Assembly: GCA_003598025.1 (NCBI GenBank)
Contig: QZKH01000003.1
Coordinates: 311,218 to 375,217 of the forward strand
Origin: Candidatus Omnitrophota bacterium
GTDB lineage: Bacteria; Omnitrophota; Gorgyraeia; Gygaellales; Profunditerraquicolaceae
Length of the DNA: 64,000 nt
Direction of reading: 5' to 3'
The translations under genes were made by a program, and so were the position numbers. How positions within the stretch are numbered: the first letter of the stretch is position 1; each line of letters begins with the position of its first letter. A model generated the notes under the pieces. The model did not search any database. It saw only the letters and a list, made by a program, of their open reading frames with translations, and was not told the DNA's origin. This document shows, in pieces, positions 14,263 through 58,050 of this stretch.

Positions 14263-14289
14263 TTGGCTTGCCTCCTTTTGGCCGAAGTT

Positions 14290-19447: not shown

Positions 19448-20155
19448 TTATCTGTTTTTAATGTTTAAATTGATATACAGGCGGACTAAATCCCTTAAGG
19501 TGCAACATGCCCTTTTAAAGAAACCATACCTGGTAGGCCTGATTTCAGCGACTTCAACAGGCAATTCCACTATCGAAAGTCCGGCTCTTTGCGCCCGGAT
19601 CATAAGCTCGGTATCAAATAACTCTTTCTCTAAAACGCACTTATCGATAAACAAGTTTACCTTCTGGCTACTGATAACCTTGATACCATGGGTATCTGTC
19701 CCCTTATACCTGAATGTAACTTTAATCAGAATGTTTAAAAGCATGGTAATAAATTTACGGGTAAACGGCCTATTATCGCGGGAACCTGACAGGACTTTTG
19801 AACCGACGATAAAGTCATTATTCTTTAAAAGCTGCAACGATTCTTTTAAAAATTTTATATCCCAAAAATCGATATTAAAAATGGCTATATTCATGCCTGA
19901 TGCATTTTTAATCCCGGCCTTTAAGGCCTTGCCGTAATTAGACTCAGGCAGGCTGATCAAGCGAAACTCCCGCGGATATGCTTTTTGAAGCGACCTGCAG
20001 ATATTCAGGGTATTATCAGAGCTGCCGTTTTCGATTATTATCACCTCAAAATCTTCTATATTTCCTGCTTTGGCCTCTTGTATAATGGTTGACACTGAAG
20101 ATTCAATATACTTCTCTTCGTTATATGCAGGGATGACAATGGAAAGTTTATTCAT
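19448..20155 (-). CDS. GT2, DPM1-like polyprenyl-phosphate sugar synthase
   Basis: LSIVIPAYNEE, a DxD region and GTDTHGIK are typical of dolichyl/undecaprenyl-phosphate glycosyl synthases. Confidence 0.8.
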   Translation of the reverse strand: MNKLSIVIPAYNEEKYIESSVSTIIQEAKAGNIEDFEVIIIENGSSDNTLNICRSLQKAYPREFRLISLPESNYGKALKAGIKNASGMNIAIFNIDFWDIKFLKESLQLLKNNDFIVGSKVLSGSRDNRPFTRKFITMLLNILIKVTFRYKGTDTHGIKVISSQKVNLFIDKCVLEKELFDTELMIRAQRAGLSIVELPVEVAEIRPTRYGFFKRACCTLRDLVRLYINLNIKNR

Positions 20156-21501
20156 CTTTCTTGCTCGCCAGTGTTGGTTTGAGAATAATTATAAAAAACT
20201 AGGCCCAATGCAATAAAAAACCAAAAATGCCTCATAGTCAAGATGTCTATATAAAAAGCATTGATAAGAATGCCCGACATTCCGGCCATATAACATACAA
20301 CCAAAGTCTTTATCTGAGCACCGGGATGCTCGGATAATGCCCACATCTTCCTTAAATATAGAATTATTAAAAACATCACTGCCAGCAACCCCAAGGCACC
20401 TGTCTCTGCAGCCCATCCAAGATAGGTAGAATGCGGATCGCTCTTTCCATGCCAGGTTTGCTGGTTTCTGTAAAAATGCGACAGAAGGACATCTTTTCTC
20501 TGCCAATCAACATAATCTATGACTTTTTCGTTAAACATACCTATTCCTACACCGGTAATAGGATGGTCCTTGAACATCCTTGCCGCAGCATCAAATAAAT
20601 GCATATAAAGAGACGCGGGATAATGGACTTTTAGGCTGAATGACATTTCATTCTGGTTGATTGTATAGTTTACCGGCACAACAACCCATAACGTTATAGC
20701 GGCAGACCAGAGAATAACAAACACAAGAAGCACAAACACAGAATACCTAAGGACAGAATAAATAACTTTGCCTCTTAATTTTAACAATATCAGGAATATT
20801 GAGACAATTATACCCAAAAGCGGGCGGGAAGCCGTAAGTAACGAAACAATAAAAAACATTATTATTGCTATAGCAAGAAATACCCTCTTCTTGCCTTTTG
20901 GTTCTTCGATAAATCTTATAAAAGCGAAAATTATGCTAATATGTAAATACGATGCAAGCATACTTCCCATCCTAAACGTTGAATGTATTCTCGGAAAAGG
21001 CAATACTGAAGTCAAACCCGGTTGAGGAGCAAGAAGAAATACGGCTCTTTTAAAAAACAACCAATCCAAAATCGCAAGCATTCCGATTGAAGATACAAAA
21101 AAAGCAGTATAGACCCATATATCCATAATAAAATAGGCACTCTTCTTTCCGCTTATCATGATACTGACAAAATAAACCATTAATAACAAATACAAAATCC
21201 CCGATAACTCCAAGAGACTGGCTGTTTTCAATTCCGCATTAATAGAGGATATTGAAAAGGCTGCTGCAATGAGGATTATGGGCAATGTTAAAAAATTGTT
21301 TTTTAGCCGGTATTTCTTTTTGATCAACCCGATAAACCAGACAATTATCATCAACAAAAAAATTATTTCTGAGAACTGTACCTTTTGGGAAATAAACGGT
21401 AAATCAGGGACTCTCATGACTGGGATAAGCGCGACGTAAAAACAGATTAATTTCTCAATAAGGGTTAAGTCTTTGAATCTCTCTATTATCTTCATAGCCA
21501 C
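20152..21501 (-). CDS. O-antigen ligase / Wzy_C family polytopic membrane protein (second copy)
   Basis: 449 aa with many TM helices. A DPHSTYLGWAAETGALGL motif resembles the Wzy_C loop. Confidence 0.6.
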   Translation of the reverse strand: MAMKIIERFKDLTLIEKLICFYVALIPVMRVPDLPFISQKVQFSEIIFLLMIIVWFIGLIKKKYRLKNNFLTLPIILIAAAFSISSINAELKTASLLELSGILYLLLMVYFVSIMISGKKSAYFIMDIWVYTAFFVSSIGMLAILDWLFFKRAVFLLAPQPGLTSVLPFPRIHSTFRMGSMLASYLHISIIFAFIRFIEEPKGKKRVFLAIAIIMFFIVSLLTASRPLLGIIVSIFLILLKLRGKVIYSVLRYSVFVLLVFVILWSAAITLWVVVPVNYTINQNEMSFSLKVHYPASLYMHLFDAAARMFKDHPITGVGIGMFNEKVIDYVDWQRKDVLLSHFYRNQQTWHGKSDPHSTYLGWAAETGALGLLAVMFLIILYLRKMWALSEHPGAQIKTLVVCYMAGMSGILINAFYIDILTMRHFWFFIALGLVFYNYSQTNTGEQER

Positions 21502-21502
21502 C

Positions 21503-24946: not shown

Positions 24947-24947
24947 A

Positions 24948-26837
24948 TCAATCAATGAATTTGCGGTGCCACAGCTCCAGGACCAGGAGTGACCATAGTT
25001 GAAACGAATAATCTTTCCGTAATCCGATATGGTCTTCAACCAGCTTCTTTACGATACCCGCGTTAAAGTATCCCCTTCTCAGTGTTTTTGGTTCAAGAAG
25101 CGTATCGCGTATATATTCTTTTAACTCATTCCTGAACCATCTTCCAATCGGCACGCCGAACCCCATCTTCCTCCTATATACATTTCTATCAGGAACGATC
25201 CCCTTAATTGCTTTTTTTAGTATATATTTCCTTATCCCGTTCTTTATTTTGTATGATGACGGAAGCCTGGCAGCAAACTCCATAAATTTATGATCAAGAA
25301 AAGGAGACCTCGCTTCTAAAGAATTAGCCATACTGGCAATATCCACCTTTACCAAAAGGTCCTCAGGCAGATAAGTATGCACATCGGCATTAAGCAGCGA
25401 ATCAAGTAAGCCGTCTGAAGCTTCATTAAAAAAGGATGATATATAAGAGCCGGCCTTATCTTCTTTTAACGCACTTTTAAATTCTGCAGAGTATAAAGCA
25501 TTCTTAAGCTCCCCGTAAAATATGCTTATCCACCGGATATAACGTTTTTCTTTCTCAATAAATGCCGCATCAAAAAATCTCTTAATGTTCCTCAGCCTGT
25601 TTTTTGGCTCAATAGAATCAGGTATAAATCCTGAAGAAAATTTGATTGCCCGCTTTAAGAGAGGCGGAAGGTTATACATGGATTCAGCAATCAGCATCGC
25701 ATGATAACGCTCATAGCCTGCGAATGACTCATCTCCTCCATCACCGTTTAAAGCAACAGTAACATGACTGCGCGTTTCTTTGGAAACATAATAAGTCGGC
25801 AAAGCGGAAGAATCTGCATACGGCTGCCCATACCTTGAGATTAAAAGCGGCAAAACGCCTAAAGCGTCAGGTTTTACCATAAACTCATGGTGTTCAGTCC
25901 CATATATGCGCGATATTTCCCTGGCAAAGGTCAGCTCGCTGTAATCGCTATCCTCAAAACCTATTGAAAAGGTCTTAACTTGCTGCCTTGAGACCTTGCT
26001 CATAATGGCGACAATCGTGCTAGAATCAATGCCTCCGCTCAAAAATGCACCCAATGGGACATCGCTATGCAGCCTAATTTTAACAGCTTCTTCAAGTAAA
26101 TTTAATACTTTCTCAACTGCTTCCTGCTGGCTGATTTTTAGCTTTGGCAAATAATCAAGGTCCCAATATCTGTCAACCCTGAGTTCATTATTATGCAAAG
26201 ACAGGGTATGCGCCGGCTTTAGCTGAAAGACATTTTTGTAAATCGTGTACGGCGAAGGTATATAACCAAAAGAAAGATAATAATCCAGACTATCTTTATT
26301 TATTTCCTTAGAAATAAACCCGCTTTCAAGTAAAGACTCCAATTCTGACGAAAATAAGAATCTGCTATCTTTGTGGCTGTAGAATAATGGTTTTTTCCCG
26401 AGCCTGTCGCGTGCAAGGAACAGTATTTTATTATTACTATCCCACAAAGCAAAAGCAAACATTCCACGTAGGCTCTTTACGCAATCCCTGCCTTTTTCTT
26501 CATATAAATGAATGACTACTTCAGTGTCGGTATTAGACCTGAATACGTGCCCCCTGGATTCTAATTCTGTGCGTAACTCAAGATAATTATAAATCTCTCC
26601 GTTTAAAATCAAGGAAATGCTGTTATCTTCATTTACCATCGGCTGATGCCCTGCGCTGGAAAGGTCAATAATGCTTAACCTGCGGTGCCCCAGGGTAATA
26701 TTAGGGCTTCCGGTTTGGGAAAATATCCCCTCGTCATCCGGGCCTCTATGTATCAACTTAGAACACATGCCTTTTATAATACGTCGGCTATCTGTATTCT
26801 GGGAATTATAGTCTAATAAACCGCATATCCCGCACAT
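24948..26837 (-). CDS. asparagine synthetase B-like glutamine amidotransferase (WbpS/AsnB family)
   Basis: The start is set at MCGICG, giving the N-terminal Cys nucleophile of class II GATases. SGGIDSS is the PP-loop of the synthetase domain. Confidence 0.85.
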   Translation of the reverse strand: MCGICGLLDYNSQNTDSRRIIKGMCSKLIHRGPDDEGIFSQTGSPNITLGHRRLSIIDLSSAGHQPMVNEDNSISLILNGEIYNYLELRTELESRGHVFRSNTDTEVVIHLYEEKGRDCVKSLRGMFAFALWDSNNKILFLARDRLGKKPLFYSHKDSRFLFSSELESLLESGFISKEINKDSLDYYLSFGYIPSPYTIYKNVFQLKPAHTLSLHNNELRVDRYWDLDYLPKLKISQQEAVEKVLNLLEEAVKIRLHSDVPLGAFLSGGIDSSTIVAIMSKVSRQQVKTFSIGFEDSDYSELTFAREISRIYGTEHHEFMVKPDALGVLPLLISRYGQPYADSSALPTYYVSKETRSHVTVALNGDGGDESFAGYERYHAMLIAESMYNLPPLLKRAIKFSSGFIPDSIEPKNRLRNIKRFFDAAFIEKEKRYIRWISIFYGELKNALYSAEFKSALKEDKAGSYISSFFNEASDGLLDSLLNADVHTYLPEDLLVKVDIASMANSLEARSPFLDHKFMEFAARLPSSYKIKNGIRKYILKKAIKGIVPDRNVYRRKMGFGVPIGRWFRNELKEYIRDTLLEPKTLRRGYFNAGIVKKLVEDHIGLRKDYSFQLWSLLVLELWHRKFID

Positions 26838-26839
26838 AA

Positions 26840-27955
26840 TCAGGCCTTTTCTACCTCCGCCGGAGAACAAACTTTTTCTACCAAATCACAAAATAACGGG
26901 GCATTAACATTAAGCGAGTACCTTAATATTACTTTTTCTCTGGCTTTTATACCGATCTTTCGGCGTAAATCGTGATCCTCAATCAGGCTTGATAATTTTT
27001 CAAACCATTCATTAAGGTTTTTTGCCAAAAGACCGTCAACCCCGTCATCAATAATCTCCTTATTTGCTCCCACAGAAGAACATACACAAGCGACACCTGT
27101 ACTCATATACAGTAATGCCTTAAACCCACATTTGCCCCGGCACCATAAATCATCGTTTAAAGGCATAATGCCTATATCAAAATCACGCAGATCATCTGCT
27201 TCGCGTTCAATCTGCCAATCCCTGTATTCAAACATAGCATTACTATTCTTTTGGCCGCTTGCGCCTATAATCCTGAACACAAGTTTATCCTTAAACTTAA
27301 GAAACAGCTGCTTAAAAACCGGCTCTAAAGGATATAAATACTGCTCAGTAGTCGGGCTGCCCATCCATCCTACGATAACTTTTTCCCTCTGACGGGTATG
27401 CGGCGCCGGACAAAAATACTCGGTATCTACAGGAGTCGGGATCACAGTAACATTCGGATTAAAACGTTGAGCATATTCTTTTAAAAACATGTTACCGGCT
27501 ATTACTTCTTTACTAAGCGAAATGATCTTTGAGGCATTGTTATTGTTGCGGAAAAGCTTTACCAGCTTGTTATTTGGGCTTGAGTTTGGCAAGAAAACAG
27601 CATCATCAAAATCGAATATTAGCGGTTTCCCCAGCAGATGCACCAGTTTTTCAAAGATAACCGGGCCTAAAGGCAGTGACTCACGGTATACGTAGACCGC
27701 ATCATATCTGAAAATTGACATGATATCTGCCAGCCTTCTTAACAGGCCTAGCATAAAAAAGAAAATCTTTCTTATGCTGCCCTTATCCTTATAAACTATC
27801 TTAAAAAAATAGCTCGACATGAAGGGGCTTATGAAGCCGTCAATTTGCCGCTCTTTAAGATATGGTAAATACTGCCATATCCTGAACCTGCAGCCCGCTC
27901 CTTCATAAGGCACCGGACTTATAAATATGATTTTCTTCCTATGGCTTTTGGCCAT
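26840..27955 (-). CDS. GT-B (GT4-like) glycosyltransferase
   Basis: The C-terminal domain has FEYRDWQIEREADDL...GIMPL and LLAKN. The start is placed at internal MAKSHRKKIIFIS. The longer ORF extends to 28126. Confidence 0.6.
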   Translation of the reverse strand: MAKSHRKKIIFISPVPYEGAGCRFRIWQYLPYLKERQIDGFISPFMSSYFFKIVYKDKGSIRKIFFFMLGLLRRLADIMSIFRYDAVYVYRESLPLGPVIFEKLVHLLGKPLIFDFDDAVFLPNSSPNNKLVKLFRNNNNASKIISLSKEVIAGNMFLKEYAQRFNPNVTVIPTPVDTEYFCPAPHTRQREKVIVGWMGSPTTEQYLYPLEPVFKQLFLKFKDKLVFRIIGASGQKNSNAMFEYRDWQIEREADDLRDFDIGIMPLNDDLWCRGKCGFKALLYMSTGVACVCSSVGANKEIIDDGVDGLLAKNLNEWFEKLSSLIEDHDLRRKIGIKAREKVILRYSLNVNAPLFCDLVEKVCSPAEVEKA

Positions 27956-29018: not shown

Positions 29019-29023
29019 TATAC

Positions 29024-31706: not shown

Positions 31707-31721
31707 CCGGGTTACCTCAAG

Positions 31722-33808: not shown

Positions 33809-33809
33809 T

Positions 33810-34805
33810 CTACCAATAGTGTCTTTTATATTTTTTATAAAATGCTAGCGTCCTGCGGATACCATCCTCAAGGCTGACCTGCGGAAACCAACCGAGCATG
33901 TCTTTTATCTTTCCGTAATCAGCTACATAATTACCTACTTCAATCTTTTTTATATCACTCGGATAAGGTACGATCCTGTATGAACCTTTTTTGTTTATTT
34001 TTATTATCAGCCTGGTTATTTCTTCCAGGCTGATAGGAGTGCCTCCCAGGTTAAACACCTGTCCATTGGCTTCATTACGGGCCATGGCGATAATAAAAGC
34101 ATCAACCACATCATCAACATAGCTTACATCCCTGACCTGAGCGCCATCCCCGTATAATTTCACTTCATTGCCGTCAATAACCTGGCGGATAAGCCAGTTA
34201 ATTATTCCCTGACGGTGATGGTGCATCTGGTGCCTGGGCCCAAAGGTGTTGGTAAGCCTTAAAGAGCACGCTTTTATACCATAGACCTCGTTATATAAAA
34301 GGTGGTAACTCTCCCCTGCAATATTGTTTATGCCGTTAACATCAGCAGGCTTCAGCGGGTGCTTTTCATCTACGGGTAGATACTCAGGCCTGCCATATTG
34401 GCTGCGGGTGCCTGCGAATATGATTTTTATCCCCGGATTATAATTTCTGCAAGCCTCTAATATGGCAAGTTGAGCGGCACAGTTAACTTCAAGGTCTGTA
34501 AACGGATCCGTCATGCTGTCTATATGGCTTAATGTCCCGGCAAGATTAAAAAGCAGGTCTTTATCTTTAATAAGGAAGTTCATTGAGTATTTGTCACGGA
34601 CATCGGAAAAGTTTATTTTAACTTTGTTCTTTACCTGGTGAATATTAAACATATTACCGCCGTATTGCGGTATCAGGGAATCGACGATAGTCACGCTGGA
34701 TTTAAGCTTAACCAATCTTTGCGCAAGAGTACTGCCTATAAACCCCAGGCCCCCGGTAATAAGCACGGATTTTCCTTTATAATATTTTTCAAGGTTCTTC
34801 ATCAT
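33810..34805 (-). CDS. NAD-dependent epimerase (paralog of 1483..2472; CDP-paratose 2-epimerase-like)
   Basis: ITGGLGFIGSTL, NLAGTLSHIDS and GPRHQ are present. It is about 45-50% identical by eye to the 1483..2472 product. Confidence 0.75.
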   Translation of the reverse strand: MMKNLEKYYKGKSVLITGGLGFIGSTLAQRLVKLKSSVTIVDSLIPQYGGNMFNIHQVKNKVKINFSDVRDKYSMNFLIKDKDLLFNLAGTLSHIDSMTDPFTDLEVNCAAQLAILEACRNYNPGIKIIFAGTRSQYGRPEYLPVDEKHPLKPADVNGINNIAGESYHLLYNEVYGIKACSLRLTNTFGPRHQMHHHRQGIINWLIRQVIDGNEVKLYGDGAQVRDVSYVDDVVDAFIIAMARNEANGQVFNLGGTPISLEEITRLIIKINKKGSYRIVPYPSDIKKIEVGNYVADYGKIKDMLGWFPQVSLEDGIRRTLAFYKKYKRHYW

Positions 34806-35524
34806 GCCTGCCTTTCTTTAAAATTTAACGTCCACCATAATTTCAGGATATCCCTTCCCACTTGATAAATCCTTACGATATTGAAAAACTGCGACTTACC
34901 ATACACGCGGTGATAATGGCTGACACCGGTTTCAGCAAAAGAAAACCCGGCATTTTGTATTTTCTTTATCATCTCAACGCAAATAACACCGCTGTTATAC
35001 CTAAGCTTGATCTTATCAAATATACTTCTCCTCATCAGCCTGAAATCGCAATCTACATCCCTGATCTTAAAGCCAAACATAAGCTTCATCGTGTATTGGT
35101 AAATCCCTCCTATCACTTTCCTGCTAAGGCTATCACTCCGGCTGAGTTTATAGCCGTTGACAATATCTACTCCGGGGCCAAGGCAGGAAATAAGATTATT
35201 AAGCTCAGTAACGTCATATTGAAAATCGCCATCCGTATAAAAAATGAATTCTTTTTTTGATGAATAAATCCCTGACCTTAAGGCGCCACCATAGCCCTCA
35301 TTTCTTTCATGATAAATAAGCCTAAGAGCAGTATATTTTTTACACAGCTCTTCCAAAACAACCCGGCTGTTATCAGTGCTGCAATCATCCACTACTATTA
35401 TTTCATAGTCATCGCTTACCTGCCGTGCCACCTTATCCATAATCACAACCATGCTGGCAATAGAGCCGGCATCATTAAAACACGGGAAAAAACAAGAAAG
35501 ACTGATTTTTTTGTCCATGGTCAT
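34802..35524 (-). CDS. GT2, DPM1-like polyprenyl-phosphate sugar synthase
   Basis: VVDDCSTDNS, YTDGD and DVDCDFRLM are present. The likely true start is the second Met at 35518, with AAAGGA 6 nt upstream. Confidence 0.8.
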   Translation of the reverse strand: MTMDKKISLSCFFPCFNDAGSIASMVVIMDKVARQVSDDYEIIVVDDCSTDNSRVVLEELCKKYTALRLIYHERNEGYGGALRSGIYSSKKEFIFYTDGDFQYDVTELNNLISCLGPGVDIVNGYKLSRSDSLSRKVIGGIYQYTMKLMFGFKIRDVDCDFRLMRRSIFDKIKLRYNSGVICVEMIKKIQNAGFSFAETGVSHYHRVYGKSQFFNIVRIYQVGRDILKLWWTLNFKERQA

Positions 35525-35632
35525 TCCTTTTTATGCGTTGGCGGCCACAAAATCGCACCTTCGAAGATGCTGATGGAGCTCGGCCTTTCAGTATTTAGCT
35601 CCAAGAAACCTCTGGCTAAAGCCCGAGAAGCT

Positions 35633-36673
35633 TCATTTAATTTTTCCGAAGGCATAACCGTCCTTCCAGAATAAAATCAGGCCGGCAAGTATAACCGGCA
35701 TAGTATCAACGAACTGATAAACCAGTGAAAAGCTGAGTGCATCGGCCTTATTTATCCCAAAGGCGCCCAAGCCAACTATAAAACCCATCTGCATGGTCCC
35801 TAAGCTACCTAATGACGGTATCATTACAAAGAGGCCGATTACAACGAGAAGAAGACAAGCTGCCATTAGCCCTAATTCTATGGAGAAAACTTTAAACATG
35901 TAATAAATGGTCAAAGCTGCCATAAGCCAGATTATCAGGGATAATACGGCAATCATTGACACCTTCTTCCACCCCCGGAATATGACCAATCCCTCGGAAA
36001 GCTTAGTAAGCCGGACAGAACAAAAATCAGCAAAACTTAACGAAAACACTCCTGCAAACCGGCAAATCAATTTGATAAAATAACCTGAATTCCTGACCCA
36101 TATCAACAGAAATAATAAAATTAAAAAGCATAGTATCCCGAAAATCAATGCCAGCTGCTTTACATGGATGTTGTACAGCGCTTTTTCTAAACCAGTTGTA
36201 CTAAACAGCCCTACCCAGATAAAAATAACAACGCTAAATAAAACTAAAGTTAAAGCATCCCAGAGGCGTTCAAGAAGGACAGTCCCCAGGCAATAACTCT
36301 TGCTTACCGAGGATTTATGCCCCAATATATAAGCCTTATACACTTCCCCGGTCCTTGCCGGTAAGATATTATTAGCCATTAAACCGACAACTGTCGCAGA
36401 AAACAAAAGTTTATTATCCAGCTTTCTATCAAAAAATAAGCCCCAGCGTACTGATCGTATGTAACAATAAAGCCATAAACTTAATAATGCCGGTGCGACA
36501 TAAATATACTTCCCTTGCAAGATATAGGAAAATATCCCGGAGATAGTCGTTCCTTTAAAAGCGATGTATAACGCAGACAAAGTAACGAAAAACGATAATA
36601 GCAATGGTAAAATCTTAGTTTTTTTCATTTTTAAAAGAATTCTTATAAGCTGTCCAAACAACAGAGATACCAT
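35633..36673 (-). CDS. flippase-like polytopic membrane protein (LPG-synthase-TM/UPF0104-like)
   Basis: About 8 TM helices. A polyprenyl-phosphate-sugar GT2 immediately downstream and a GT-C protein upstream is the classic three-gene arrangement. Confidence 0.5.
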   Translation of the reverse strand: MVSLLFGQLIRILLKMKKTKILPLLLSFFVTLSALYIAFKGTTISGIFSYILQGKYIYVAPALLSLWLYCYIRSVRWGLFFDRKLDNKLLFSATVVGLMANNILPARTGEVYKAYILGHKSSVSKSYCLGTVLLERLWDALTLVLFSVVIFIWVGLFSTTGLEKALYNIHVKQLALIFGILCFLILLFLLIWVRNSGYFIKLICRFAGVFSLSFADFCSVRLTKLSEGLVIFRGWKKVSMIAVLSLIIWLMAALTIYYMFKVFSIELGLMAACLLLVVIGLFVMIPSLGSLGTMQMGFIVGLGAFGINKADALSFSLVYQFVDTMPVILAGLILFWKDGYAFGKIK

Positions 36674-38435
36674 AAGCCAGATAAATCAGTAAAAACTGCT
36701 CAATAGGCGCCCGATGCCTATATGACGCCTCGGTAATAAAATGTATTCCTGTCCTATAAGCGATAAAAATCAATATAAGTAAATGCGTCCCAAATAACCC
36801 ATATCTCCTGAAAGCCGCAAATATGCCTATTAATGTAAGGATATACGCATAAAACCACAAGCTGTAATAATAGTTGCTCAATCTATATAGAAATATCGGG
36901 TCAATCCCGCCATACCCCTGGTTTAAATACATAGCTTTAAATTTCATCCAATAATTATTGCCAAGGACCCTTAAAACAAATGACGGCTTCTCGTATAATA
37001 ACTTAAGAAATGACCCGGGGGCAGATAAATCAATTCCGGCTTTGACTAAGTCCGGGTTTTCTCCGCGGAGATAACTCTCTACTATTGGGTAATTTGTCCC
37101 TTCGGCGGATGAAACAGGATAATAGGTCCCCAGATTAACTTTGTTTCTCAATGCAAAAGGAGATAGTGAAATCAATACGAATACAACTATCAACAAACAG
37201 TCAACCACTGTTTTTTTAAAACCGGCTTTCCTGGATAAAAATAACATTAGCCCTAGAATAACCATAAATGGATAAAAAAAGTTTATCTCTCTGGTAGCAA
37301 TAGCCAGCCCCCAGATAAGCCCGGTTAATGCAAGATGCAGATTTTTTGCTTTAAAATTGCCCTGATAATAGATATATACTGCAAAAAGCATAACACCCAA
37401 AGTTGAGTAGAATAAATCCAATGCCTGGTGGCCTATAGCCGAGGAAGAAAAAATTGCCGAAAAATTTAAAGCTGACATAGCTGCAGTAATCCTTGCAGTT
37501 TTAAGGTTAAATAAAATTTTAGAAATAAAATACACAAAAATACAGGCCAGCGAAGTAAATATGCCCTGGATAAAACATACCGCAAAATAACTCCTGCCAA
37601 ATATCGCATATACCCCAGACACAAATAACCAGTAACCGGCGACTAAGGCCTCGGTTATGTTGTTTCCCTGCATATAAGCATACGCAAGAGAATCATAAAG
37701 CCTGCCATCAGAACCAGTATCGATATATTCTGGAACCGACATTATCCTGTATAAGTAAAATATCCGTAACGCAAGGGCAAAAATAAAGATTAATAACAAA
37801 AATACCTTCTCATTAAGCAACCAGCCTTTAATACTGCTTGCCCTTACAAAAATTGTATTTTGGGCCGGGTACTTTTTGAGAGACCTAAAAATTCCTAAAC
37901 CAAAAACTAAAAGGATGAAACATGGCAGAAATATAAATCCGTTTAAAAAGAGTGCCGAAGCTATATACACCAGAAGCATTAAAAACAAAGAGGTATAAAC
38001 ATTGGATGAATAACTCTGCCCGCTGTTTTGATTTCTGTTCAGTTCAAATACCTTTGATGAGTATAGTGCTAATAAACTAAAAGCTGACAAAATAAACAAG
38101 TCACAATAAAAAACATAAGCCTGGCTTCCTAATAACCGGGCGGCTCCTTTTGAAAGTTGAAATTTTAACATTAATAAATCAATCAACAAATGCTGCAAAA
38201 AACCAAAAACCAGCATTTTCTTTATTATATTTACAAGTCTTATTTTAAGAAGATACGATATAAAAGCTGAATATAGGAAAACTACTAACCAAAAAAATAC
38301 AGGAACAGGAAAACCTTTATGCACTGCAATAGGAAAATCAAGGCTGAATAAAGATGATATCTTTGGGCTCAAGGAAATAAGCTCAAGCAAAACAAATACG
38401 GCTGCCGCTAAAAAAATGATTGCCTGTTTTTTCAT
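36615..38435 (-). CDS. large polytopic membrane protein, GT-C-like (ArnT/PMT-type) glycosyltransferase candidate
   Basis: 606 aa with more than 12 TM helices and loop acidic motifs. It neighbours a GT2 polyprenyl-P-sugar synthase and a flippase-like protein. Confidence 0.45.
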   Translation of the reverse strand: MKKQAIIFLAAAVFVLLELISLSPKISSLFSLDFPIAVHKGFPVPVFFWLVVFLYSAFISYLLKIRLVNIIKKMLVFGFLQHLLIDLLMLKFQLSKGAARLLGSQAYVFYCDLFILSAFSLLALYSSKVFELNRNQNSGQSYSSNVYTSLFLMLLVYIASALFLNGFIFLPCFILLVFGLGIFRSLKKYPAQNTIFVRASSIKGWLLNEKVFLLLIFIFALALRIFYLYRIMSVPEYIDTGSDGRLYDSLAYAYMQGNNITEALVAGYWLFVSGVYAIFGRSYFAVCFIQGIFTSLACIFVYFISKILFNLKTARITAAMSALNFSAIFSSSAIGHQALDLFYSTLGVMLFAVYIYYQGNFKAKNLHLALTGLIWGLAIATREINFFYPFMVILGLMLFLSRKAGFKKTVVDCLLIVVFVLISLSPFALRNKVNLGTYYPVSSAEGTNYPIVESYLRGENPDLVKAGIDLSAPGSFLKLLYEKPSFVLRVLGNNYWMKFKAMYLNQGYGGIDPIFLYRLSNYYYSLWFYAYILTLIGIFAAFRRYGLFGTHLLILIFIAYRTGIHFITEASYRHRAPIEQFLLIYLAYGISVVWTAYKNSFKNEKN

Positions 38436-39871
38436 TAAGGTTGCTCCTTCAGTATCTTTTTACCGGATATTTTTGTGATACCGATTGCTGCCCAGATAGC
38501 TACTACAGGAGTAATCATATCCCTGAAGCGTAATACCGTCCCGATATTTGCCTGGGTCAAAGACAAAGCAGAAACCAATAAAAACGAATAAATCAAAAGA
38601 ATCAGATACCTCTTCCAGGCATAACGAAGAGAAATAAATAAACCTAAAGGCGAAAGTAAAACCATAATATACCAAAGCAACATCTGAGGATAAGCCAAAA
38701 ACATGGTTTTTTTGACAGGTCTGAATATATTAGGCTCAAAGATGAAATGAAACAAACCTCTCATATAAGCCATTATATATTGCCCATAGCTTAGCTTGTT
38801 AGCAGGATACACATAACACTCTTCATCAGGCTGCTTTCCAAATACAAAATATGGATTTAAGATATAGTACTTGTCTTCAAGTATCCTGTAGTTATTCCCG
38901 GGCGTCTTTGCTGAAGCCTGATGCAAAGATAACACCCTGAATATTTTTTGACGGAATATCTTATCGATCTTGGCCGGGCTAAGCCTGAATAGCACTATAG
39001 ATGAAAAAATAATGATTAATACAATGAATATCTTCACTTTAAGACGCGGGTGTCCGGAAACAGCTAAAGCTGTTATAAATAAACTAAGCAACACTATTGG
39101 CATAATAAATTTTCTCAGGGTTGAGAGTATAAATAATGCAATAAATATCGCAAAAAATAATATTATCTTCTGCCGGACATAAGGATAAGAAGTCAATTTT
39201 ATAAAAAGCCAGAATATGCATAAAATCACCAGGATTAAAGATGCGTCTTTAAGATTGGTTATGGACCACAACAGCAATGACGGAAAAAATGCCATTAACA
39301 AAGCGGATATTCTGCTTACATTTAAAGAAAAAACCTGCCGGCAGACATAATAACAAACAACCGGTATCAGTGAACCAAAAAGGCAATTCATTATGGCACT
39401 TGATACAGGGCTGAAACCAAACAAGTAATTAAACCCGGCTATAATAAAATTGTAGCCCTGCCATCCATAAACAGGGTTATAAGCCGAGCCAAGAACTTTC
39501 TGGGTAAGAAAAAAACCTCTCCAGTCTAAAGACATCCAATACCCTCTCAATGTATAGTAGGCGCTGTCACCGATGAACTTAACAGACCAGCCAGGATATC
39601 CGGGATAAAATAAAACTTCGTTTCTTGAAACCATAAACGCGCTGACTGAAAAAAGCAGAAGCAGCCTTAACAAAAATGCAGCCATAAAAAGATTCATTAT
39701 AAACCTGGATTCGGCATCAGCTTTTATATTTTTTTTAAGAACTACCAGTAAAACAACTAACGAAACAGTAAAACCTCCGGGACTTAAGAAAAATAATAAC
39801 CCTAAGAGTGCTGATATGATCACAACCTTTATATCGATCATCGCCGCTATCATCTCTCTATCGCTTTCCAT
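38435..39871 (-). CDS. polytopic membrane protein, GT-C-like candidate
   Basis: 478 aa with about 11 TM helices. Its start codon overlaps the stop of the upstream gene by 1 nt. Confidence 0.4.
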   Translation of the reverse strand: MESDREMIAAMIDIKVVIISALLGLLFFLSPGGFTVSLVVLLVVLKKNIKADAESRFIMNLFMAAFLLRLLLLFSVSAFMVSRNEVLFYPGYPGWSVKFIGDSAYYTLRGYWMSLDWRGFFLTQKVLGSAYNPVYGWQGYNFIIAGFNYLFGFSPVSSAIMNCLFGSLIPVVCYYVCRQVFSLNVSRISALLMAFFPSLLLWSITNLKDASLILVILCIFWLFIKLTSYPYVRQKIILFFAIFIALFILSTLRKFIMPIVLLSLFITALAVSGHPRLKVKIFIVLIIIFSSIVLFRLSPAKIDKIFRQKIFRVLSLHQASAKTPGNNYRILEDKYYILNPYFVFGKQPDEECYVYPANKLSYGQYIMAYMRGLFHFIFEPNIFRPVKKTMFLAYPQMLLWYIMVLLSPLGLFISLRYAWKRYLILLIYSFLLVSALSLTQANIGTVLRFRDMITPVVAIWAAIGITKISGKKILKEQP

Positions 39872-40575
39872 TGAAAATAGGCAATACCAATCCAGGTTAA
39901 ATTATGCGAAACAGCAAAAGCTATCAATACAAGATACAACGGGCTAAGGCCCCACTGATTATAAAATACCGGCAAAGTTACGGAAGCCAAAAATAATATG
40001 TTAATATCCCTGGTTGACACCCAAAGGAAAATCTTTGCCAGTTTTATAAAAATATTTGAGCTCGTCTCCTTTTTAAAATGAGCTGCCGAGGAGCTATCCA
40101 TAAGGTTAAAAATCCAGTTTCCGGATTTGACTGGAGTATGGATTAACGCTTTTTTCATATGAAAACCAAATGCCAGGAAGAAAAGGATAATAAATATTCT
40201 TGCGTCTAAGGTTTTGAGGTATATACCTAAACATACAAAAAAACCTAAAAGAGTACCGCTTGTCCCCTGGAAGTTATTCTCCAGGTATTCAAGCCACTGC
40301 CCCTCAATAGTTACTTTATTCTTGAGCCTGGCTAAATCACCATCCACATAGTCAAATATATCCGATAGTTGAAGCAAAATTCCGGCTGTAAAAATAGCAT
40401 ATAAGCTGCATTTAAGATAAAGATACATTGCTGCTATCACTAAAAATGACCTAAAAAAAGTAATTGCATTAGGCGTAACAGGGGTCTTTAAAAGGGCCTT
40501 GGCAAGCGGAAGAGAAAAACCCCTGTTTATCCGGTCAACAATATCCCCGTATTTTGTCAATCTTTCTTCATTCAT
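39850..40575 (-). CDS. CDP-alcohol phosphotransferase-family membrane protein (variant motif)
   Basis: The motif is D-Y-V-D-G-D-L-A-R-x8-G-x3-E-x3-N, compared with the consensus DG-x2-AR-x8-G-x3-D-x3-D. There are 5-6 TM helices. The start is set at the internal Met, giving an ATGA overlap with the upstream radical SAM gene. Confidence 0.6.
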   Translation of the reverse strand: MNEERLTKYGDIVDRINRGFSLPLAKALLKTPVTPNAITFFRSFLVIAAMYLYLKCSLYAIFTAGILLQLSDIFDYVDGDLARLKNKVTIEGQWLEYLENNFQGTSGTLLGFFVCLGIYLKTLDARIFIILFFLAFGFHMKKALIHTPVKSGNWIFNLMDSSSAAHFKKETSSNIFIKLAKIFLWVSTRDINILFLASVTLPVFYNQWGLSPLYLVLIAFAVSHNLTWIGIAYFQWKAIER

Positions 40576-41996
40576 CTTTTTCTGAATACCTCCGTTATCA
40601 TATATATTCCAGCCAACAAGAAACCGCGTATTTGCCTGGGGTTCTTCAGGAGATGGCAAAATAACATCCAAAAATAGCCAAAACGAAAATAAAATCTCTT
40701 ATGTGCCGACTGGTATAACTCATAAATATCATCTCCGCTGAGATAGTCATTATGGAACTTTGTCCTCTGATGTAGCCCCATATCTGCCCAGTCTCTGACA
40801 TTGTCCAGCCAGCCCTTTTCTTTTGCCTGCCTGTAAAGATCAGTCCCGGGAAAAGGTGTAGTTATGCAATATTGGGCTATGTGCGGGTTCAATTTTATGG
40901 AAAATTCAATGGTTTGACGCACTGTTTCTTTATCATCCTTTGGCAGGCCTATCATAAAGCTGCAAAGAACAAGAAACCCCTCTCTTTTGGCCGAAGCTAC
41001 TATTTCTTCTGCTACGGGTAATTTGATATTTTTTTGTACGTCGTCAAGTACGCCCTGGTTGCCGCTTTCAACTCCGAAGTTAAGACCGTAGCATCCGGCG
41101 CGCCGCATTTTTCTGAAAAGCTGCCTGGGATAAATGAAATCAAGCCTTGCGTAGCACCACCAGTTAATTTTTAATTTTCTTTTTAAAAGCTCATCGCAGA
41201 ATTCTTCTGCCCTGGTTTTATTCGCTAAAAATGTATCATCAAGTATCGCAATCTGCCTGGTCCCGTATTTGTTATAAAGCATCTCGATCTCTGAAATAAT
41301 ATTTCCTATGCTGCGGAAACGAACCTTCGGCCCCCAGAAATGCAAAGATGAACAATACCTGCATCTGCTGGGGCATCCGCGCGAAGAAATCAGCGTCATG
41401 CTTTTTTTCCCGGAAAATCCTATATTCCAAAGAGCACCCGGCCGGTATAGTTCAAGCCTAAACAATTCCCTTGCCGGAAACATAACTGTATCAAGGTCTT
41501 CTATCCTTTCACGGGAGTGGTTTACGATTATTTTTCCTTTATCCCTGAAGGCAATGCCCCTGATATTAAAAAGGTTACCGAACGAATTCCTGATCAGCTC
41601 TTTTACCGTCTCTTCCCCTTCACCCATTACAATGATATCTACTTCGGGCAAGCCGGTTAAAGTCTCTTCAGGAAAGAAAGTCACATGCGGCCCGCCGATA
41701 ATAATCTTCTTATTTGACTGTCTCTTTACTTCCCTGGCCAATTTAGCAATTATAGGGATCATCAAAGTAGTCGAGGACAAACCGATGATATCGGAATCTG
41801 AAAGCAAGATTTTGCTGATTGTCTGTTCAATGCTGAGCTGTTCGGCATTGGCATCAAGTATCTCAACTTCGGCGCCTTCCTGTATTGCAGACGCGGCAAT
41901 ATAAGCTAATCCCAGGGGGATCTGGACCTGTACGGCATGCTTAAACCCGGAATAAACATCCTCTAAATAAGGGGGATTCACTAATAATAGCTTCAT
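40572..41996 (-). CDS. B12-binding radical SAM enzyme (class B)
   Basis: 474 aa. There is an N-terminal B12-binding-like domain, then SRGCPSRCRYCS CxxxCxxC. Confidence 0.85.
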   Translation of the reverse strand: MKLLLVNPPYLEDVYSGFKHAVQVQIPLGLAYIAASAIQEGAEVEILDANAEQLSIEQTISKILLSDSDIIGLSSTTLMIPIIAKLAREVKRQSNKKIIIGGPHVTFFPEETLTGLPEVDIIVMGEGEETVKELIRNSFGNLFNIRGIAFRDKGKIIVNHSRERIEDLDTVMFPARELFRLELYRPGALWNIGFSGKKSMTLISSRGCPSRCRYCSSLHFWGPKVRFRSIGNIISEIEMLYNKYGTRQIAILDDTFLANKTRAEEFCDELLKRKLKINWWCYARLDFIYPRQLFRKMRRAGCYGLNFGVESGNQGVLDDVQKNIKLPVAEEIVASAKREGFLVLCSFMIGLPKDDKETVRQTIEFSIKLNPHIAQYCITTPFPGTDLYRQAKEKGWLDNVRDWADMGLHQRTKFHNDYLSGDDIYELYQSAHKRFYFRFGYFWMLFCHLLKNPRQIRGFLLAGIYMITEVFRKR

Positions 41997-42009
41997 TATT
42001 TTCCTTTCT

Positions 42010-43305
42010 CTACCACAGCTTCAGCCAGATACAAACCTGCCTAAAGATTAATTTTGCCTGGCTGCTATAATGAAAAAGCGCAAAATTAAAGAGAAAATAA
42101 ATGCTTATCCATATTGCTGCCTTCTTTTTGTTGAGAACCTTTGAAAAAACATTGTTTAGGCCGAATGCGGATACAATTATTAAAGACGGCTCAAAACCGA
42201 TTCTGAACCTCGGCAATGCAAAATAAACCAAGTGTATGATTTGAAAATAAAGGACAGGCATTAACAGCGTCAGATAGCTGTAACTGAGTTTCCTGAATAT
42301 CAGCATTATCCCATAAAAGAAAAATGGAGCAAGAAATGCAAACCCGAAATTATAAACAGCTATTCCATTGCCTAGTATTTCCCAATCCAAGGGAGACCAC
42401 AAGTATAGAACCTTAAGAATCTCGAGTTTTAATGTCTTATAAGGATTATTCCTTACGAAATCCACGGTTTTACGGAAGAAGAAACTCCGCCTCTCTTTGA
42501 ATGAGCTTATAGACCTGGCCTCTATCATTACCGGATCATTGTCAGGCCTGATACCAAATATTTTCCCCTGGTAAGGGCAGAATGAATTATAAAGCCCTCT
42601 ATCCGGGGCTTCTGTAACCGGTATTACCTGGCCTCCGGAAACATAATAGTTTCTCATACTCCACGGTATTATTACGCAAGCAAAAAGAATAAAAAAAACT
42701 ATCTGCCTGAAAAAATTTTTCGCTAGCCCCAGGTGTTTCCTTGCTGAGAGAAAAAACAACAAAGACAATGACGGAGCAAAAAGTATAACAACGGAACGGG
42801 TCAATACGCTCATCCCCAGAAATAAACTGCTTAAAGAAAGAAAGATCATTCTGTGGTTCTTAACATATTTAATTGCAAAATACAGCGTTAGTGTAAATAA
42901 GAATACAAAAATATTTTCTGAAAGCAGCAGGCTTGGCAGCCGGATAAATACCGGGTATAAGCATACGATTATAGCCGAAATTAATGATATTCGCTTATTA
43001 AAATACTCTAATGAGGTCTTATACACAACTAAACAAAGTAGAGCACCAAGCAAAGACTGAATTAAGATTATTGCCGGAATATTCTGTCCAAATAATGAAT
43101 ATATAGCCGCCAGAAATGCAGGATAAACCGGGTGGTCTTTTAACGGAAATTGGGCAAGCATTTCCGGCGTTAATATTCCCCATCGCACGATGTCTAATGC
43201 CAGATCATTATAAACCAAGGCATCCCCGCTAAGGTTAACCGGCAGCCACAAATATGGTATTAAACGTATAAAAAAAGCCGCAATAATTATTAAAATGATT
43301 GTCAT
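42010..43305 (-). CDS. GT-C ArnT/PMT_2-like polytopic glycosyltransferase candidate
   Basis: 431 aa. The first loop is acidic (SGDALVYNDLALD), and there are about 11 TM helices. Confidence 0.5.
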   Translation of the reverse strand: MTIILIIIAAFFIRLIPYLWLPVNLSGDALVYNDLALDIVRWGILTPEMLAQFPLKDHPVYPAFLAAIYSLFGQNIPAIILIQSLLGALLCLVVYKTSLEYFNKRISLISAIIVCLYPVFIRLPSLLLSENIFVFLFTLTLYFAIKYVKNHRMIFLSLSSLFLGMSVLTRSVVILFAPSLSLLFFLSARKHLGLAKNFFRQIVFFILFACVIIPWSMRNYYVSGGQVIPVTEAPDRGLYNSFCPYQGKIFGIRPDNDPVMIEARSISSFKERRSFFFRKTVDFVRNNPYKTLKLEILKVLYLWSPLDWEILGNGIAVYNFGFAFLAPFFFYGIMLIFRKLSYSYLTLLMPVLYFQIIHLVYFALPRFRIGFEPSLIIVSAFGLNNVFSKVLNKKKAAIWISIYFLFNFALFHYSSQAKLIFRQVCIWLKLW

Positions 43306-46570: not shown

Positions 46571-46589
46571 TTCAACCTCCGATCAATAG

Positions 46590-51110: not shown

Positions 51111-51115
51111 ATTTA

Positions 51116-55821: not shown

Positions 55822-55839
55822 ATTTTTGTCTCCTTGTAT

Positions 55840-58021: not shown

Positions 58022-58050
58022 ATTATACTGTAGGCGGTTACATTTGACTA
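58022..58050 (-). promoter_or_regulatory. putative sigma70-like promoter for the MarR-phosphonate operon
   Basis: On the minus strand: TAGTCA (-35-like, 4/6), an 18-nt spacer, then TATAAT (perfect -10). This lies in the 94-bp gap upstream of the regulator. Confidence 0.3.

Follow-up and report, generated by a model that had tools for sequence, protein, structure and literature searches.

The stretch of DNA analysed here, hereafter the window, comprises 64,000 nucleotides of a Candidatus Omnitrophota bacterium (assembly GCA_003598025.1, contig QZKH01000003.1, forward-strand positions 311,218 to 375,217), and coordinates are given as window positions. About 55 co-directional genes, all on the minus strand, fill the whole 64 kb, most of them overlapping their neighbours or lying less than 20 bp from them, and their Pfam map is that of a surface-glycan locus. 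The window is one very large locus of this kind with a probable multi-component extracytoplasmic glycosylation system embedded in it, which comprises four short family 2 glycosyltransferases (GT2s), three polytopic glycosyltransferases of the GT-C fold, a polytopic PF03706 protein and a set of tailoring genes. An earlier description made from the letters and open reading frames (ORFs) only, the sequence-only reading, had proposed a relay in which DPM1-like polyprenyl-phosphate-sugar synthases, a flippase and GT-Cs add single sugars outside the cytoplasm. All eight ORFs that it named are present at the coordinates given, on the minus strand, each with the family signature claimed for it as judged by Pfam. 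Two of its four GT2s (45180 and 61509) lie outside the span of 19448-43305 assigned to the relay.

The core of the system is a module of 13 genes (34802-49632). In order of transcription it encodes a methyltransferase–GT4 fusion protein at the upstream edge (47575..49632, minus strand like all window genes below; Pfam), a LegB-like dehydratase, a nucleotidyltransferase, GT2_3, a CE4 deacetylase with a DUF3473 domain, a FemAB-like acyltransferase, GT-C431, a B12-binding radical-SAM enzyme, a cytidine diphosphate (CDP)-alcohol transferase, GT-C478, GT-C606, the PF03706 protein and GT2_2. Genomic contexts of homologues (designated by L numbers) were fetched and compared with the window proteins by tblastn; the module is conserved in L003 and L005, and partly so in L001 and L006. 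The core arrangement cannot be put down to chance, since it recurs in independent Omnitrophota assemblies with proteins that are 40-80% identical. Identities are 76-80% for GT2_3 (L003 and L005), 66-67% for GT2_2, 40-53% for the GT-Cs and 44-54% for the methyltransferase–GT4 fusion (L003, L005 and L006).

Within the module, the sub-block GT2_3–deacetylase–FemAB-like–GT-C431, which is ArnC/ArnD/ArnT-like, is contiguous in four loci (in L003, L005 and L006 the FemAB-like gene directly adjoins those of the deacetylase and GT-C431), and a similar GT2–deacetylase–GT-C arrangement is found in the unrelated L027. The trio GT-C606–PF03706–GT2_2 is contiguous in four assemblies, L009 included: in L003, L005 and L009 the PF03706 orthologue, 44-49% identical, is flanked by the GT-C606 gene on one side and the GT2_2 gene on the other. 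GT2_2 and GT2_3 are the only GT2s that share the conserved module with the three GT-Cs, GT2_1 and GT2_4 having no orthologues in those loci. The module, with its deacetylase, FemAB-like, radical-SAM and CDP-alcohol genes, was overlooked in the sequence-only reading. Operon boundaries could not be drawn by a promoter and terminator scan of 33000-51500, in which promoter-like sites were as frequent as expected from shuffled sequence and terminator-like sites fell within genes.

The four short GT2s are GT2_1 (19448-20155, 235 aa, PF00535 at 75.6 bits), the DPM1/ArnC-like GT2_2 (34802-35524, 240 aa, 84.4 bits), the DPM1/AglJ-like GT2_3 (45180-45878, 232 aa, 111.7 bits) and the DPM1-like GT2_4 (61509-62318, 269 aa, 113.3 bits), the gathering cutoff (GA) of PF00535 being 23.3. 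None has a segment that reaches the threshold for a transmembrane (TM) helix in a hydrophobic segment scan, and no additional domain was found in any of them. The C-terminal TM anchor seen in GtrB, ArnC, PfDPMS (the type III dolichyl-phosphate-mannose synthase of Pyrococcus furiosus) and the yeast type I enzyme is thus not present. The polyprenyl-phosphate-sugar synthase PpgS is likewise TM-less. Other TM-less members of the family include human DPM1 (PMC5526996) and GacI, which is partnered by the small membrane protein GacJ (PMC8035078). The sequence-only reading had held that C-terminal domains indicating direct transfer to the final acceptor would count against it; the four GT2s are short and lack an extra domain, so this objection does not arise.

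Comparison with solved structures places these TM-less GT-A enzymes, by sequence, in the DPM1/ArnC/GtrB subgroup of polyprenyl-phosphate glycosyltransferases. In single-sequence searches, PfDPMS (5mlz) was matched by GT2_3 (E 2.4e-27, residues 5-222) and GT2_4 (E 5e-17, residues 13-242), and the closest solved relative of GT2_2 was ArnC (9hwj, E 4e-14, residues 9-226). A profile of all four matched PfDPMS at 8.8e-32 (residues 5-212), three ArnC entries at about 3e-30 (6-226) and GtrB at 1.5e-22 (7-181). According to the structural work on PfDPMS (PMC5526996), Asp91 binds the metal and Arg117 and Arg131 are ligands of the dolichyl phosphate (Dol-P) phosphate. When these residues are mapped on the alignments, the equivalents of Asp91 and Arg131 are invariant across the four GT2s and that of Arg117 is R/K/K/K; all four also have the acceptor-loop Arg and an E-x-P motif. 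The PpgS model aligns nearly end to end with all four, at 19-60 bits and so far under its equivalog cutoff. GT2_2 and GT2_3 are predicted from these comparisons to be polyprenyl-phosphate-sugar synthases, the latter for an (amino)sugar.

A different role for the short GT2s would be conventional cytoplasmic assembly, in which they extend a repeat unit linked to undecaprenyl diphosphate (Und-PP) and the GT-Cs are ligases or oligosaccharyltransferases that move Und-PP-glycans to protein or lipid; as a variant, GT2_3 would initiate an oligosaccharide on polyprenyl monophosphate like archaeal AglJ. AglJ starts the N-glycan on Dol-P, and it is the best family match of GT2_3 (TIGR04182, 139.9 against a cutoff of 325); the lack of TM anchors would also suit soluble assembly enzymes. 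On the other hand, TM-less polyprenyl-phosphate glycosyltransferases such as GacI with GacJ are known (PMC8035078), and the reach of the alignments tells against such a role. Most other solved GT2s, those that act on sugar acceptors included, align with the four-protein profile only over the N-terminal ~100-138 residues, the exceptions being TarP (6h1j, 6-182) and SpsA (1h7l, 9-174) at ~175-182, whereas PfDPMS and ArnC align beyond 210 and GtrB to 181. The GT-Cs, discussed below, bear on this alternative as well.

GT2_1 is probably also a polyprenyl-phosphate-sugar synthase, judging from sequence comparison, but it is the least certain of the four. Its match to ArnC (E 8e-7) spans residues 2-223, that to PfDPMS no more than 3-138. 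Its C-terminal half is homologous to those of the GT2_3 family (hhalign 97.4%, E 1e-11) and the GT2_2 family (96.2%, E 2e-9), so that the acceptor-side similarity to solved polyprenyl-phosphate glycosyltransferases, weak when sought directly, is found transitively through these two families. In 11 GT2_1 orthologues of 40-46% identity, ENGS strictly replaces the nucleotide-base-binding DDxS and NIDFWD (NID) replaces DAD, which suggests that the subfamily uses an unusual donor. The contexts of these metagenomic orthologues link the subfamily to GT-Cs. In L017 (1998-3323, plus strand), a single ORF that extends past the contig end encodes a natural fusion of a GT2_1 orthologue, with NIDFWD kept, to a PMT_2-type GT-C, a TM helix being followed by WYDEG of the first loop of the PMT_2 domain; by its sequence, the fusion is a "Rosetta-stone" link between GT2_1 subfamily and GT-Cs. 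PMT_2 GT-Cs also lie a few genes from GT2_1 orthologues in L021 and L026. (Home-made hidden Markov models of the three window GT-C families were too narrow for this purpose and missed the PMT_2 domains that Pfam found in L017, L021 and L026.) For the conventional assembly alternative, a fusion of this kind is awkward, as it fits a pair of donor synthase and transferase; together with the conserved adjacency to GT-Cs it lends indirect support to the prediction that the GT2s transfer sugar onto polyprenyl phosphate.

In the window itself, GT2_1 is translationally coupled, by a 4-bp overlap, to the gene of a polytopic Wzy_C protein of the O-antigen ligase/polymerase-like type (20152-21501, PF04932 at 47.3 bits). 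Wzy_C genes also lie 2-3 genes from GT2_1 orthologues in L013 (8787-10184) and L025 (2191-3690), with methyltransferases and a B12 radical-SAM enzyme nearby, and the association may reflect functional coupling or shared membership of such loci. GT2_4 has no orthologue in L001-L007, where only paralogue-level matches of 25-33% were obtained, and no partner GT-C was detectable. It lies next to the gene of a Wzx/MOP-family protein (62290-63546, Polysacc_synt), a family that acts as the flippase in some three-component systems (PMC11127046; PMC8035078).

The three polytopic proteins are GT-C606 (36615..38435, PMT_2 at 30.7 bits, candidate catalytic Asp243 in the first outer loop), GT-C478 (38435..39871, PMT_2 at 35.8 bits, candidate catalytic Asp102) and the ArnT/PMT-like GT-C431 (42010..43305, PMT_2 at 60.8 and PMT at 23.1 bits, candidate catalytic Asp28), gathering cutoffs being 26.1 for PMT_2 (PF13231) and 22.7 for PMT (PF02366). 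In a homologue search GT-C606 proved identical to the NCBI hypothetical protein C4533_04175, whose source NCBI places in Omnitrophota, and an archaeal origin was rejected on that ground. Searches with GT-C431 and with the GT-C478 family profile against solved-structure sequences gave no match. With such searches empty, structure models were built for the two weakest GT-Cs, and GT-C431 was placed by family alignment instead. The GT-C478 model, made from 16 sequences (80.5 / 0.82), has GT-C proteins as all of its top 21 fold matches, led by AglB (21.9), Pmt4 (21.0), STT3B (19.0), PglB (18.8), Pmt2 (18.4) and ArnT (18.3) and followed, in order, by ALG12, GPI-MT1, AftA, AftB, ALG3, ALG9, AftD, PimE and EmbA; the non-GT-C folds WaaL and RodA score 6.1 and 6.0. 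The GT-C431 family aligns with the GT-C478 family (hhalign 99.2%, E 6e-20, 360 columns) and with the GT-C606 family (99.1%, E 1.7e-18, at least 360 columns). D28, D102 and D243 are each invariant within their own family and fall on the same alignment position, within a (G/S)D-x3-Y motif that directly follows a TM helix, in a loop that would be periplasmic, judging from helix count and charge distribution only. From the fold matches and the family alignments with their coincident Asp, these are three paralogous GT-C fold proteins and not Wzy-like proteins or transporters, the outcome that the sequence-only reading had named as fatal to it.

The fold in itself is not decisive on the type of donor. 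The STT3 profile (PF02516) has no match in the three window GT-Cs, the WWDYG motif not having been explicitly searched, and the proteins (431-606 aa) have no C-terminal soluble domain, the models being helical to about 10 residues from the C terminus. These two features argue against an oligosaccharyltransferase role and hence tell against conventional assembly, in spite of weak PF02516 matches in some GT-C478 homologues; the window GT-Cs match PMT_2 instead. Taking these points with those from the GT2s, we regard conventional assembly as improbable, and as the least probable of the alternatives weighed here.

GT-C606 carries a conserved N-terminal extension of about 200 aa (residues 1-205, window 37821-38435) with about 6 TM helices, which is lineage-specific. 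It has no Pfam match, and among 1.84 billion cluster representatives it was found only at the N terminus of 7 proteins of similar size.

Three GT-C paralogues of one subfamily side by side, with only two dedicated GT2s in the module, could also be read as a polymerising array. The relay would then be kept, but the three paralogous GT-Cs would use one or two polyprenyl-phosphate-sugar donors for the stepwise assembly of an extracytoplasmic homopolymer or set of branches, as in the mycobacterial MptA/MptB/Aft/Emb systems for mannan and arabinan, and the notion of single sugars of up to four kinds would be wrong. L001 is of interest here, as GT-C478 and GT-C606 are paired there and the PF03706–GT2_2 pair is missing; the one GT2 gene in the vicinity (311 aa) lies about 3 kb downstream and is 26% identical to GT2_2. 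The CDP-alcohol transferase, whose best matches include phosphatidylinositol phosphate (PIP) synthases, sits among the GT-Cs, recalling the phosphatidylinositol anchor of mycobacterial lipomannan. Against an array of this sort, no carbohydrate-binding or large periplasmic domain of the kind seen in Emb and AftD is present in the GT-Cs, their models being helical to the C terminus; fold scores to Aft and Emb proteins fall below those to AglB, PMT and ArnT; and the locus already has Wzx and Wzy_C polymerisation machinery. We consider a polymerising array unlikely.

The protein encoded between GT-C606 and GT2_2 (35633..36673) belongs to PF03706 (LPG_synthase_TM, also UPF0104, TIGR00374 or "PplT") and is a candidate flippase for lipid-linked sugars on the strength of its family. 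PF03706 matches at 124.6 bits (GA 33.4) over residues 25-331 and profile positions 2-302 of 302, the "flippase-like domain" model TIGR00374 scores 71.1 against a cutoff of 43.2, and about 7-8 hydrophobic helices are present; the true start of the gene is probably Met16 (36628). In the literature, the family is that of the MprF flippase domain and of the C-terminal domain of archaeal AglD. It is widespread, stand-alone or fused to GT-A or GT-B domains (bioRxiv 10.1101/2022.03.11.483950), and in 2015 the neighbours that UPF0104 conserves in archaea, an AglD-like GT2 and a PMT/STT3-like protein, led to the prediction that it is a glycosylation flippase (PMC5898192). Among four contexts of distant homologues, two have the PF03706 gene beside a GT-C, namely a TMEM260-like protein in L010 and PMT_2 and DUF2298 proteins on the P0049 contig. 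A scan of genome contigs with the PF03706 alignment retrieved two Omnitrophota loci; the peptide patterns derived from the alignment were over-specific, so that this does not amount to a broad taxonomic survey. The three Wzx/MOP-family proteins of the window (Polysacc_synt; 23654, 49629 and 62290) are alternative flippase candidates, and the gene map has no gap big enough for an ORF of the GtrA or SMR type. Of the three-component set, the synthase and GT-C parts are thus in place, and the flippase part is present as a candidate only (PF03706 or one of the three MOP proteins).

Two of the distant PF03706 contexts merit separate mention. In L010 (6001-8894) a stand-alone PF03706 gene overlaps the TMEM260-like GT-C gene. 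In L011 (6001-10017) the PF03706 gene precedes genes of a GT4 and an AsnB-like amidotransferase; an AsnB-like protein is also encoded in the window (24948-26870, Pfam map).

The remaining module genes point to Arn-like tailoring of a sugar before export rather than to simple single-sugar addition, given that a CE4 deacetylase, a FemAB-like protein, an HpnJ-like radical-SAM enzyme and a CDP-alcohol phosphotransferase are all among them. The deacetylase (44335..45183, PF01522 at 83.7 and PF11959 at 104.1 bits; TIGR03006 at 242.5, cutoff 276) is encoded by a gene that overlaps that of GT2_3 by 4 bp, and is followed by the FemAB-like/Acetyltransf_6 acyltransferase (43302..44375, PF13480 at 51.4 bits; TIGR03019 at 150.8, cutoff 260). 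Neither a TM helix nor a signal peptide was found in either protein, and both are cytoplasmic by this sequence measure. Upstream of GT2_3 lie the sugar-1-phosphate nucleotidyltransferase (45863-46570, PF00483 at 149 bits) and the LegB-like nucleoside diphosphate (NDP)-N-acetylhexosamine (HexNAc) 4,6-dehydratase (46590-47582, GDP_Man_Dehyd at 242 bits; TIGR04180 LegB at 417.7, cutoff 475), with orthologues of 67-78% identity in the same order in L003 and L005; these enzymes probably supply a donor of the NDP-6-deoxy-4-keto-HexNAc type for GT2_3.

The B12-binding radical-SAM enzyme (40572..41996, PF02310 and PF04055) is HpnJ-like, at 236 bits against a cutoff of 577.6, and has orthologues of 59-72% identity in L001, L003 and L006, class-I methyltransferases taking its place in L005. 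The CDP-alcohol phosphotransferase family protein (39850..40671, PF01066 at 38.3 bits; start probably Met33, 40575) has archaetidylinositol-phosphate and PIP synthases as its best NCBIfam matches, far under cutoff. It has orthologues of 53-60% identity in L003 and L005, and its variant motif DxxDGxxAR-x8-G-x3-E-x3-N, in which the last two canonical Asp are replaced, is conserved in 3 Omnitrophota orthologues.

With these genes in view, the module could be a membrane-lipid head-group pathway, in which GT2, deacetylase, PF03706 protein, CDP-alcohol transferase and HpnJ-like radical-SAM enzyme make and flip an amino-sugar-modified lipid without any carrier-lipid relay. The models would be GpgSDF for glucosaminyl-phosphatidylglycerol (GlcN-PG), HexSDF for aminohexosyl-hexosyldiradylglycerol (HNHDRG) and HpnI/J/K/L for hopanoid cyclitol ethers. 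PF03706 is the predicted flippase of both GpgSDF and HexSDF, each of which has a deacetylase; the radical-SAM enzyme has HpnJ as its best family match; a CDP-alcohol transferase of lipid head-group type is conserved in the module; and in L011 a GT4 and an AsnB-like protein, but no GT-C, are encoded beside PF03706. But the GpgSDF and HexSDF synthases are GT-B enzymes (GT4, and similar to monogalactosyldiacylglycerol synthase) and not DPM1-like GT-A enzymes, the window GT2s keep the acceptor-phosphate-binding arginines of PfDPMS, the module lies within a Wzx/Wzy glycan locus, and three conserved GT-Cs, which need lipid-phosphate-linked donors, would be left without a role. A head-group pathway is therefore a doubtful explanation, somewhat more so than the polymerising array. 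By analogy with ArnT and lipid A, it would merge with the relay if the acceptor of the GT-Cs were a membrane lipid.

The explanation that we prefer, with a probability of about 0.6, is a multi-component extracytoplasmic glycosylation relay. GT2_3 would load an NDP-activated sugar of the 6-deoxy-HexNAc type, made by the adjacent nucleotidyltransferase and LegB-like dehydratase, onto polyprenyl phosphate at the cytoplasmic face. The cytoplasmic CE4 deacetylase, followed by FemAB-like re-acylation and possibly the B12 radical-SAM enzyme, would tailor the sugar before export, as ArnD follows ArnC. GT2_2 would make a second polyprenyl-phosphate-sugar beside the PF03706 protein, which would be its membrane anchor or partner, the flippase, or both, the pair corresponding to archaeal AglD with its two fused parts encoded separately. 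Once the sugars are flipped, GT-C431, GT-C478 and GT-C606 would transfer them in the periplasm, each by way of its invariant outer-loop Asp (D28, D102 or D243), with a Wzx/Wzy-made glycan, a glycolipid or a protein as candidate acceptors. A third donor would probably come from GT2_1, since other members of its family are encoded next to GT-Cs or as fusions with them. The parts list and logic of the sequence-only reading, that is, polyprenyl-phosphate-sugar synthase, flippase candidate and GT-C, are retained in this relay. Its upper figure of four different sugars goes beyond what the data support, as the GT-Cs number only three; moreover only GT2_2 (34802) and GT2_3 (45180) are syntenic with them across genomes, GT2_4 is an orphan, and GT2_1 is tied to GT-Cs only in relatives (L017, L021 and L026).

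Several observations weigh against the relay. None of the GT2s attains any NCBIfam equivalog cutoff, the best scores other than that of GT2_3 being 68.8 for GT2_2 with ArnC (cutoff 529), 69.6 for GT2_4 with AglJ (cutoff 325) and 51.6 for GT2_1 with PgfS (cutoff 500), so that the four are family members and not orthologues of named enzymes. The equivalent of PfDPMS Ser135 is S(?)/S/G/T, with Gly in GT2_2, and Lys178 is not conserved. In GT2_1 the first Asp of the DXD is Asn (N-I-D), and the C-terminal half, searched alone or as an 11-orthologue profile, has no significant PDB match. A hydrophobic-moment scan of the four GT2s for amphipathic interface helices was uninformative, its maxima being no higher than those of shuffled sequences. 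For the PF03706 protein, a phmmer search of PDB sequences gave no match at E <=1, solved MprF included, and two of the four distant PF03706 contexts are without a GT-C, one having the GT4 and AsnB-like genes of L011 and the other no glycosylation gene nearby. The two characterised bacterial PF03706 operons, GpgSDF and HexSDF, pair a GT-B synthase with a deacetylase to make amino-sugar glycerolipids, so that the cargo there is a glycerolipid and not a polyprenyl-phosphate-sugar, and flipping is unproven even there (PMC12713373; PMC10128005). The deacetylase and FemAB-like enzyme might act on a nucleotide sugar or a finished polymer instead of a lipid-linked sugar. More generally, the identity of the donor sugars, of the lipid carrier and of the acceptor is our inference, and so is the flipping step.

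Among characterised systems, a close parallel in gene logic is Arn of Gram-negative bacteria (ArnC, ArnD, ArnE/F, ArnT). There too a DPM1-like GT2 loads an amino sugar onto undecaprenyl phosphate, a CE4-family enzyme de-N-acylates the lipid-linked sugar on the cytoplasmic side, and a GT-C of the PMT_2/ArnT type transfers it after flipping, and the window has GT2_3, deacetylase and GT-C431 in this order. The ArnD step is the analogue of the module deacetylase. The window differs from Arn in that its GT2s lack the two TM helices of ArnC and the likely donor is derived from a 6-deoxy-HexNAc. Beyond the Arn-like set it encodes two more GT-Cs, together with the FemAB-like acyltransferase, the CDP-alcohol transferase and the B12 radical-SAM enzyme. 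That the locus is itself an Arn operon can be rejected, as there are no equivalog scores (ArnC stands at 68.8 against 529) and no homologues of ArnA, ArnB or ArnE/F.

The archaeal AglD-type neighbourhood (the AglD-like GT2 arCOG00897, arCOG00899 UPF0104 and the PMT/STT3-like arCOG00563; Makarova et al. 2015, PMC5898192) brings the same three families together, and PF03706 next to GT2_2 parallels the two parts fused in AglD; Haloferax AglD/AglR/AglS were compared too. Unlike that neighbourhood, the window is bacterial, has GT2 and PF03706 as separate genes in reverse order, and adds three GT-C paralogues and tailoring enzymes. In both cases PF03706 as a polyprenyl-phosphate-sugar flippase is a prediction.

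Gtr-type systems are alike in using a GT-A polyprenyl-phosphate-sugar synthase, a flippase and a GT-C to modify a glycan of the Wzx/Wzy or ABC route. Those compared were GtrA/B/C of Shigella and Salmonella, CsbB/GtcA/YfhO, GacI/J/K/L, lactococcal CsdAB/CD/EF with CflA, and Citrobacter ORF12-15. TM-less synthases with a separate membrane partner, flippases of the Wzx/MATE type and a flippase shared by several GT-A/GT-C pairs are all documented among such systems (PMC8035078; PMC11127046). The window differs in lacking a GtrA/SMR-family protein, in having tailoring enzymes between synthase and GT-C, and in its flippase candidate PF03706, a family so far unused in characterised bacterial systems of this type. 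Mycobacterial Ppm1/PpgS with their GT-Cs (PimE, Mpt, Aft, Emb and Rv3779) share DPM1-like enzymes that consist of the catalytic domain only, but belong to another phylum and envelope; window scores are far under the equivalog cutoffs, and among the window GT-Cs there is no sign of polymer builders equipped with carbohydrate-binding domains. GpgSDF (P. aeruginosa) and HexSDF (C. difficile) likewise co-encode a synthase, a deacetylase and a PF03706 "flippase", whereas their GT-B synthases act on glycerolipids, no GT-C is present, and the product is a membrane lipid and not a donor for further transfer. By its sequence scores the window system falls outside all named equivalog families. It is set apart from characterised bacterial systems by the PF03706 flippase candidate, by three paralogous GT-Cs per module and by the conserved tailoring enzymes between synthase and transferases.

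The rest of the locus is that of a surface glycan. The initiating transferase (7731-9530) is of the Glycos_transf_4 (WecA/MraY) type; it is a 599-aa fusion of unusual architecture, with C-terminal CoA_binding_3 and PglD_N-like regions. Five GT-B genes (9730, 14290, 26840, 29024 and 47575) and two GT2 genes with C-terminal TM helices (32825 and 60608) were counted, which bears out the figure of about seven cytoplasmic glycosyltransferases in the sequence-only reading. Two Wzy_C proteins, many NDP-sugar enzymes, several methyltransferases, the AsnB-like amidotransferase and a phosphonate sub-cluster are also encoded.

Five radical-SAM enzymes are spread over the locus (17060-18469, 30249-31706, 31722-32828, 40572-41996 and 59103-60611), three with a B12-binding domain and one with a SPASM domain, and such a set in one locus implies that sugars are C-methylated or rearranged in unusual ways. 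A 622-aa GT1::DUF218 fusion adjoins a DUF4330 protein (13720-16158); the pair recurs in L007 (18595-21073) and the fusion in L025 (4598-6595), at 47-53% identity. Three ORFs have no family: 404-1492 (362 aa) with weak ATP-grasp signals (PylC-like_N, 18 bits), 13103-13720 (205 aa) with about 3 TM helices, and 58048-59124, a 358-aa soluble protein beside a winged-helix regulator.

The phosphonate sub-cluster (51116-57591) encodes a fusion of cytidylyltransferase and phosphoenolpyruvate (PEP) mutase (TIGR02320 at 392 bits, above the cutoff of 319.6), a thiamine diphosphate enzyme like phosphonopyruvate decarboxylase and an Fe-alcohol dehydrogenase, and it is flanked by two cytoplasmic proteins of the alkaline-phosphatase superfamily. 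We take the trio to represent a route of the 2-hydroxyethylphosphonate/CMP-phosphonate type, like the early steps to fosfomycin. The trio recurs in L007 (1-3565), where the genes immediately after it encode a CDP-alcohol transferase of 190 aa, a GT2 and a B12 radical-SAM enzyme. Phosphonate probably decorates the glycan of the locus. In the tentative extended Arn-type reading set out next, the variant CDP-alcohol transferase of the module might in addition draw a phospho- or phosphono-alcohol from this CMP-phosphonate pathway, encoded at a distance of 10 kb, and couple it to the carrier or acceptor used there.

A more specific and quite tentative form of the relay, to which we give only a small chance, is an extended Arn-type module. 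A 6-deoxy-amino-hexose would be built on polyprenyl phosphate and pass through de-N-acetylation, re-acylation of the FemAB type (possibly aminoacyl-tRNA-dependent) and methylation or rearrangement by the B12 radical-SAM enzyme, after which PF03706 would flip it and three paralogous GT-Cs would install it. If this is true, the module would hold the first FemAB-like and the first HpnJ-like radical-SAM enzyme to act on a carrier-lipid-linked monosaccharide, and would be the first bacterial case of PF03706 as a polyprenyl-phosphate-sugar flippase. On the relay reading in general, PF03706 would be a fourth candidate flippase family for bacterial extracytoplasmic glycosylation, and a bacterial counterpart of the AglD-type prediction made for archaea in 2015. 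Current understanding of the relay mechanism itself is unchanged, the mechanism being already known and its parts familiar. The compact conserved module, with synthase, deacetylase, FemAB-like protein, radical-SAM enzyme and GT-C, suits heterologous study of the tailoring of carrier-lipid-linked sugars. Omnitrophota are uncultured bacteria with very small cells that are thought to depend on other organisms, and a 64 kb locus for an elaborately decorated, possibly phosphonate-bearing surface glycan is a reasonable place to seek determinants of host contact.

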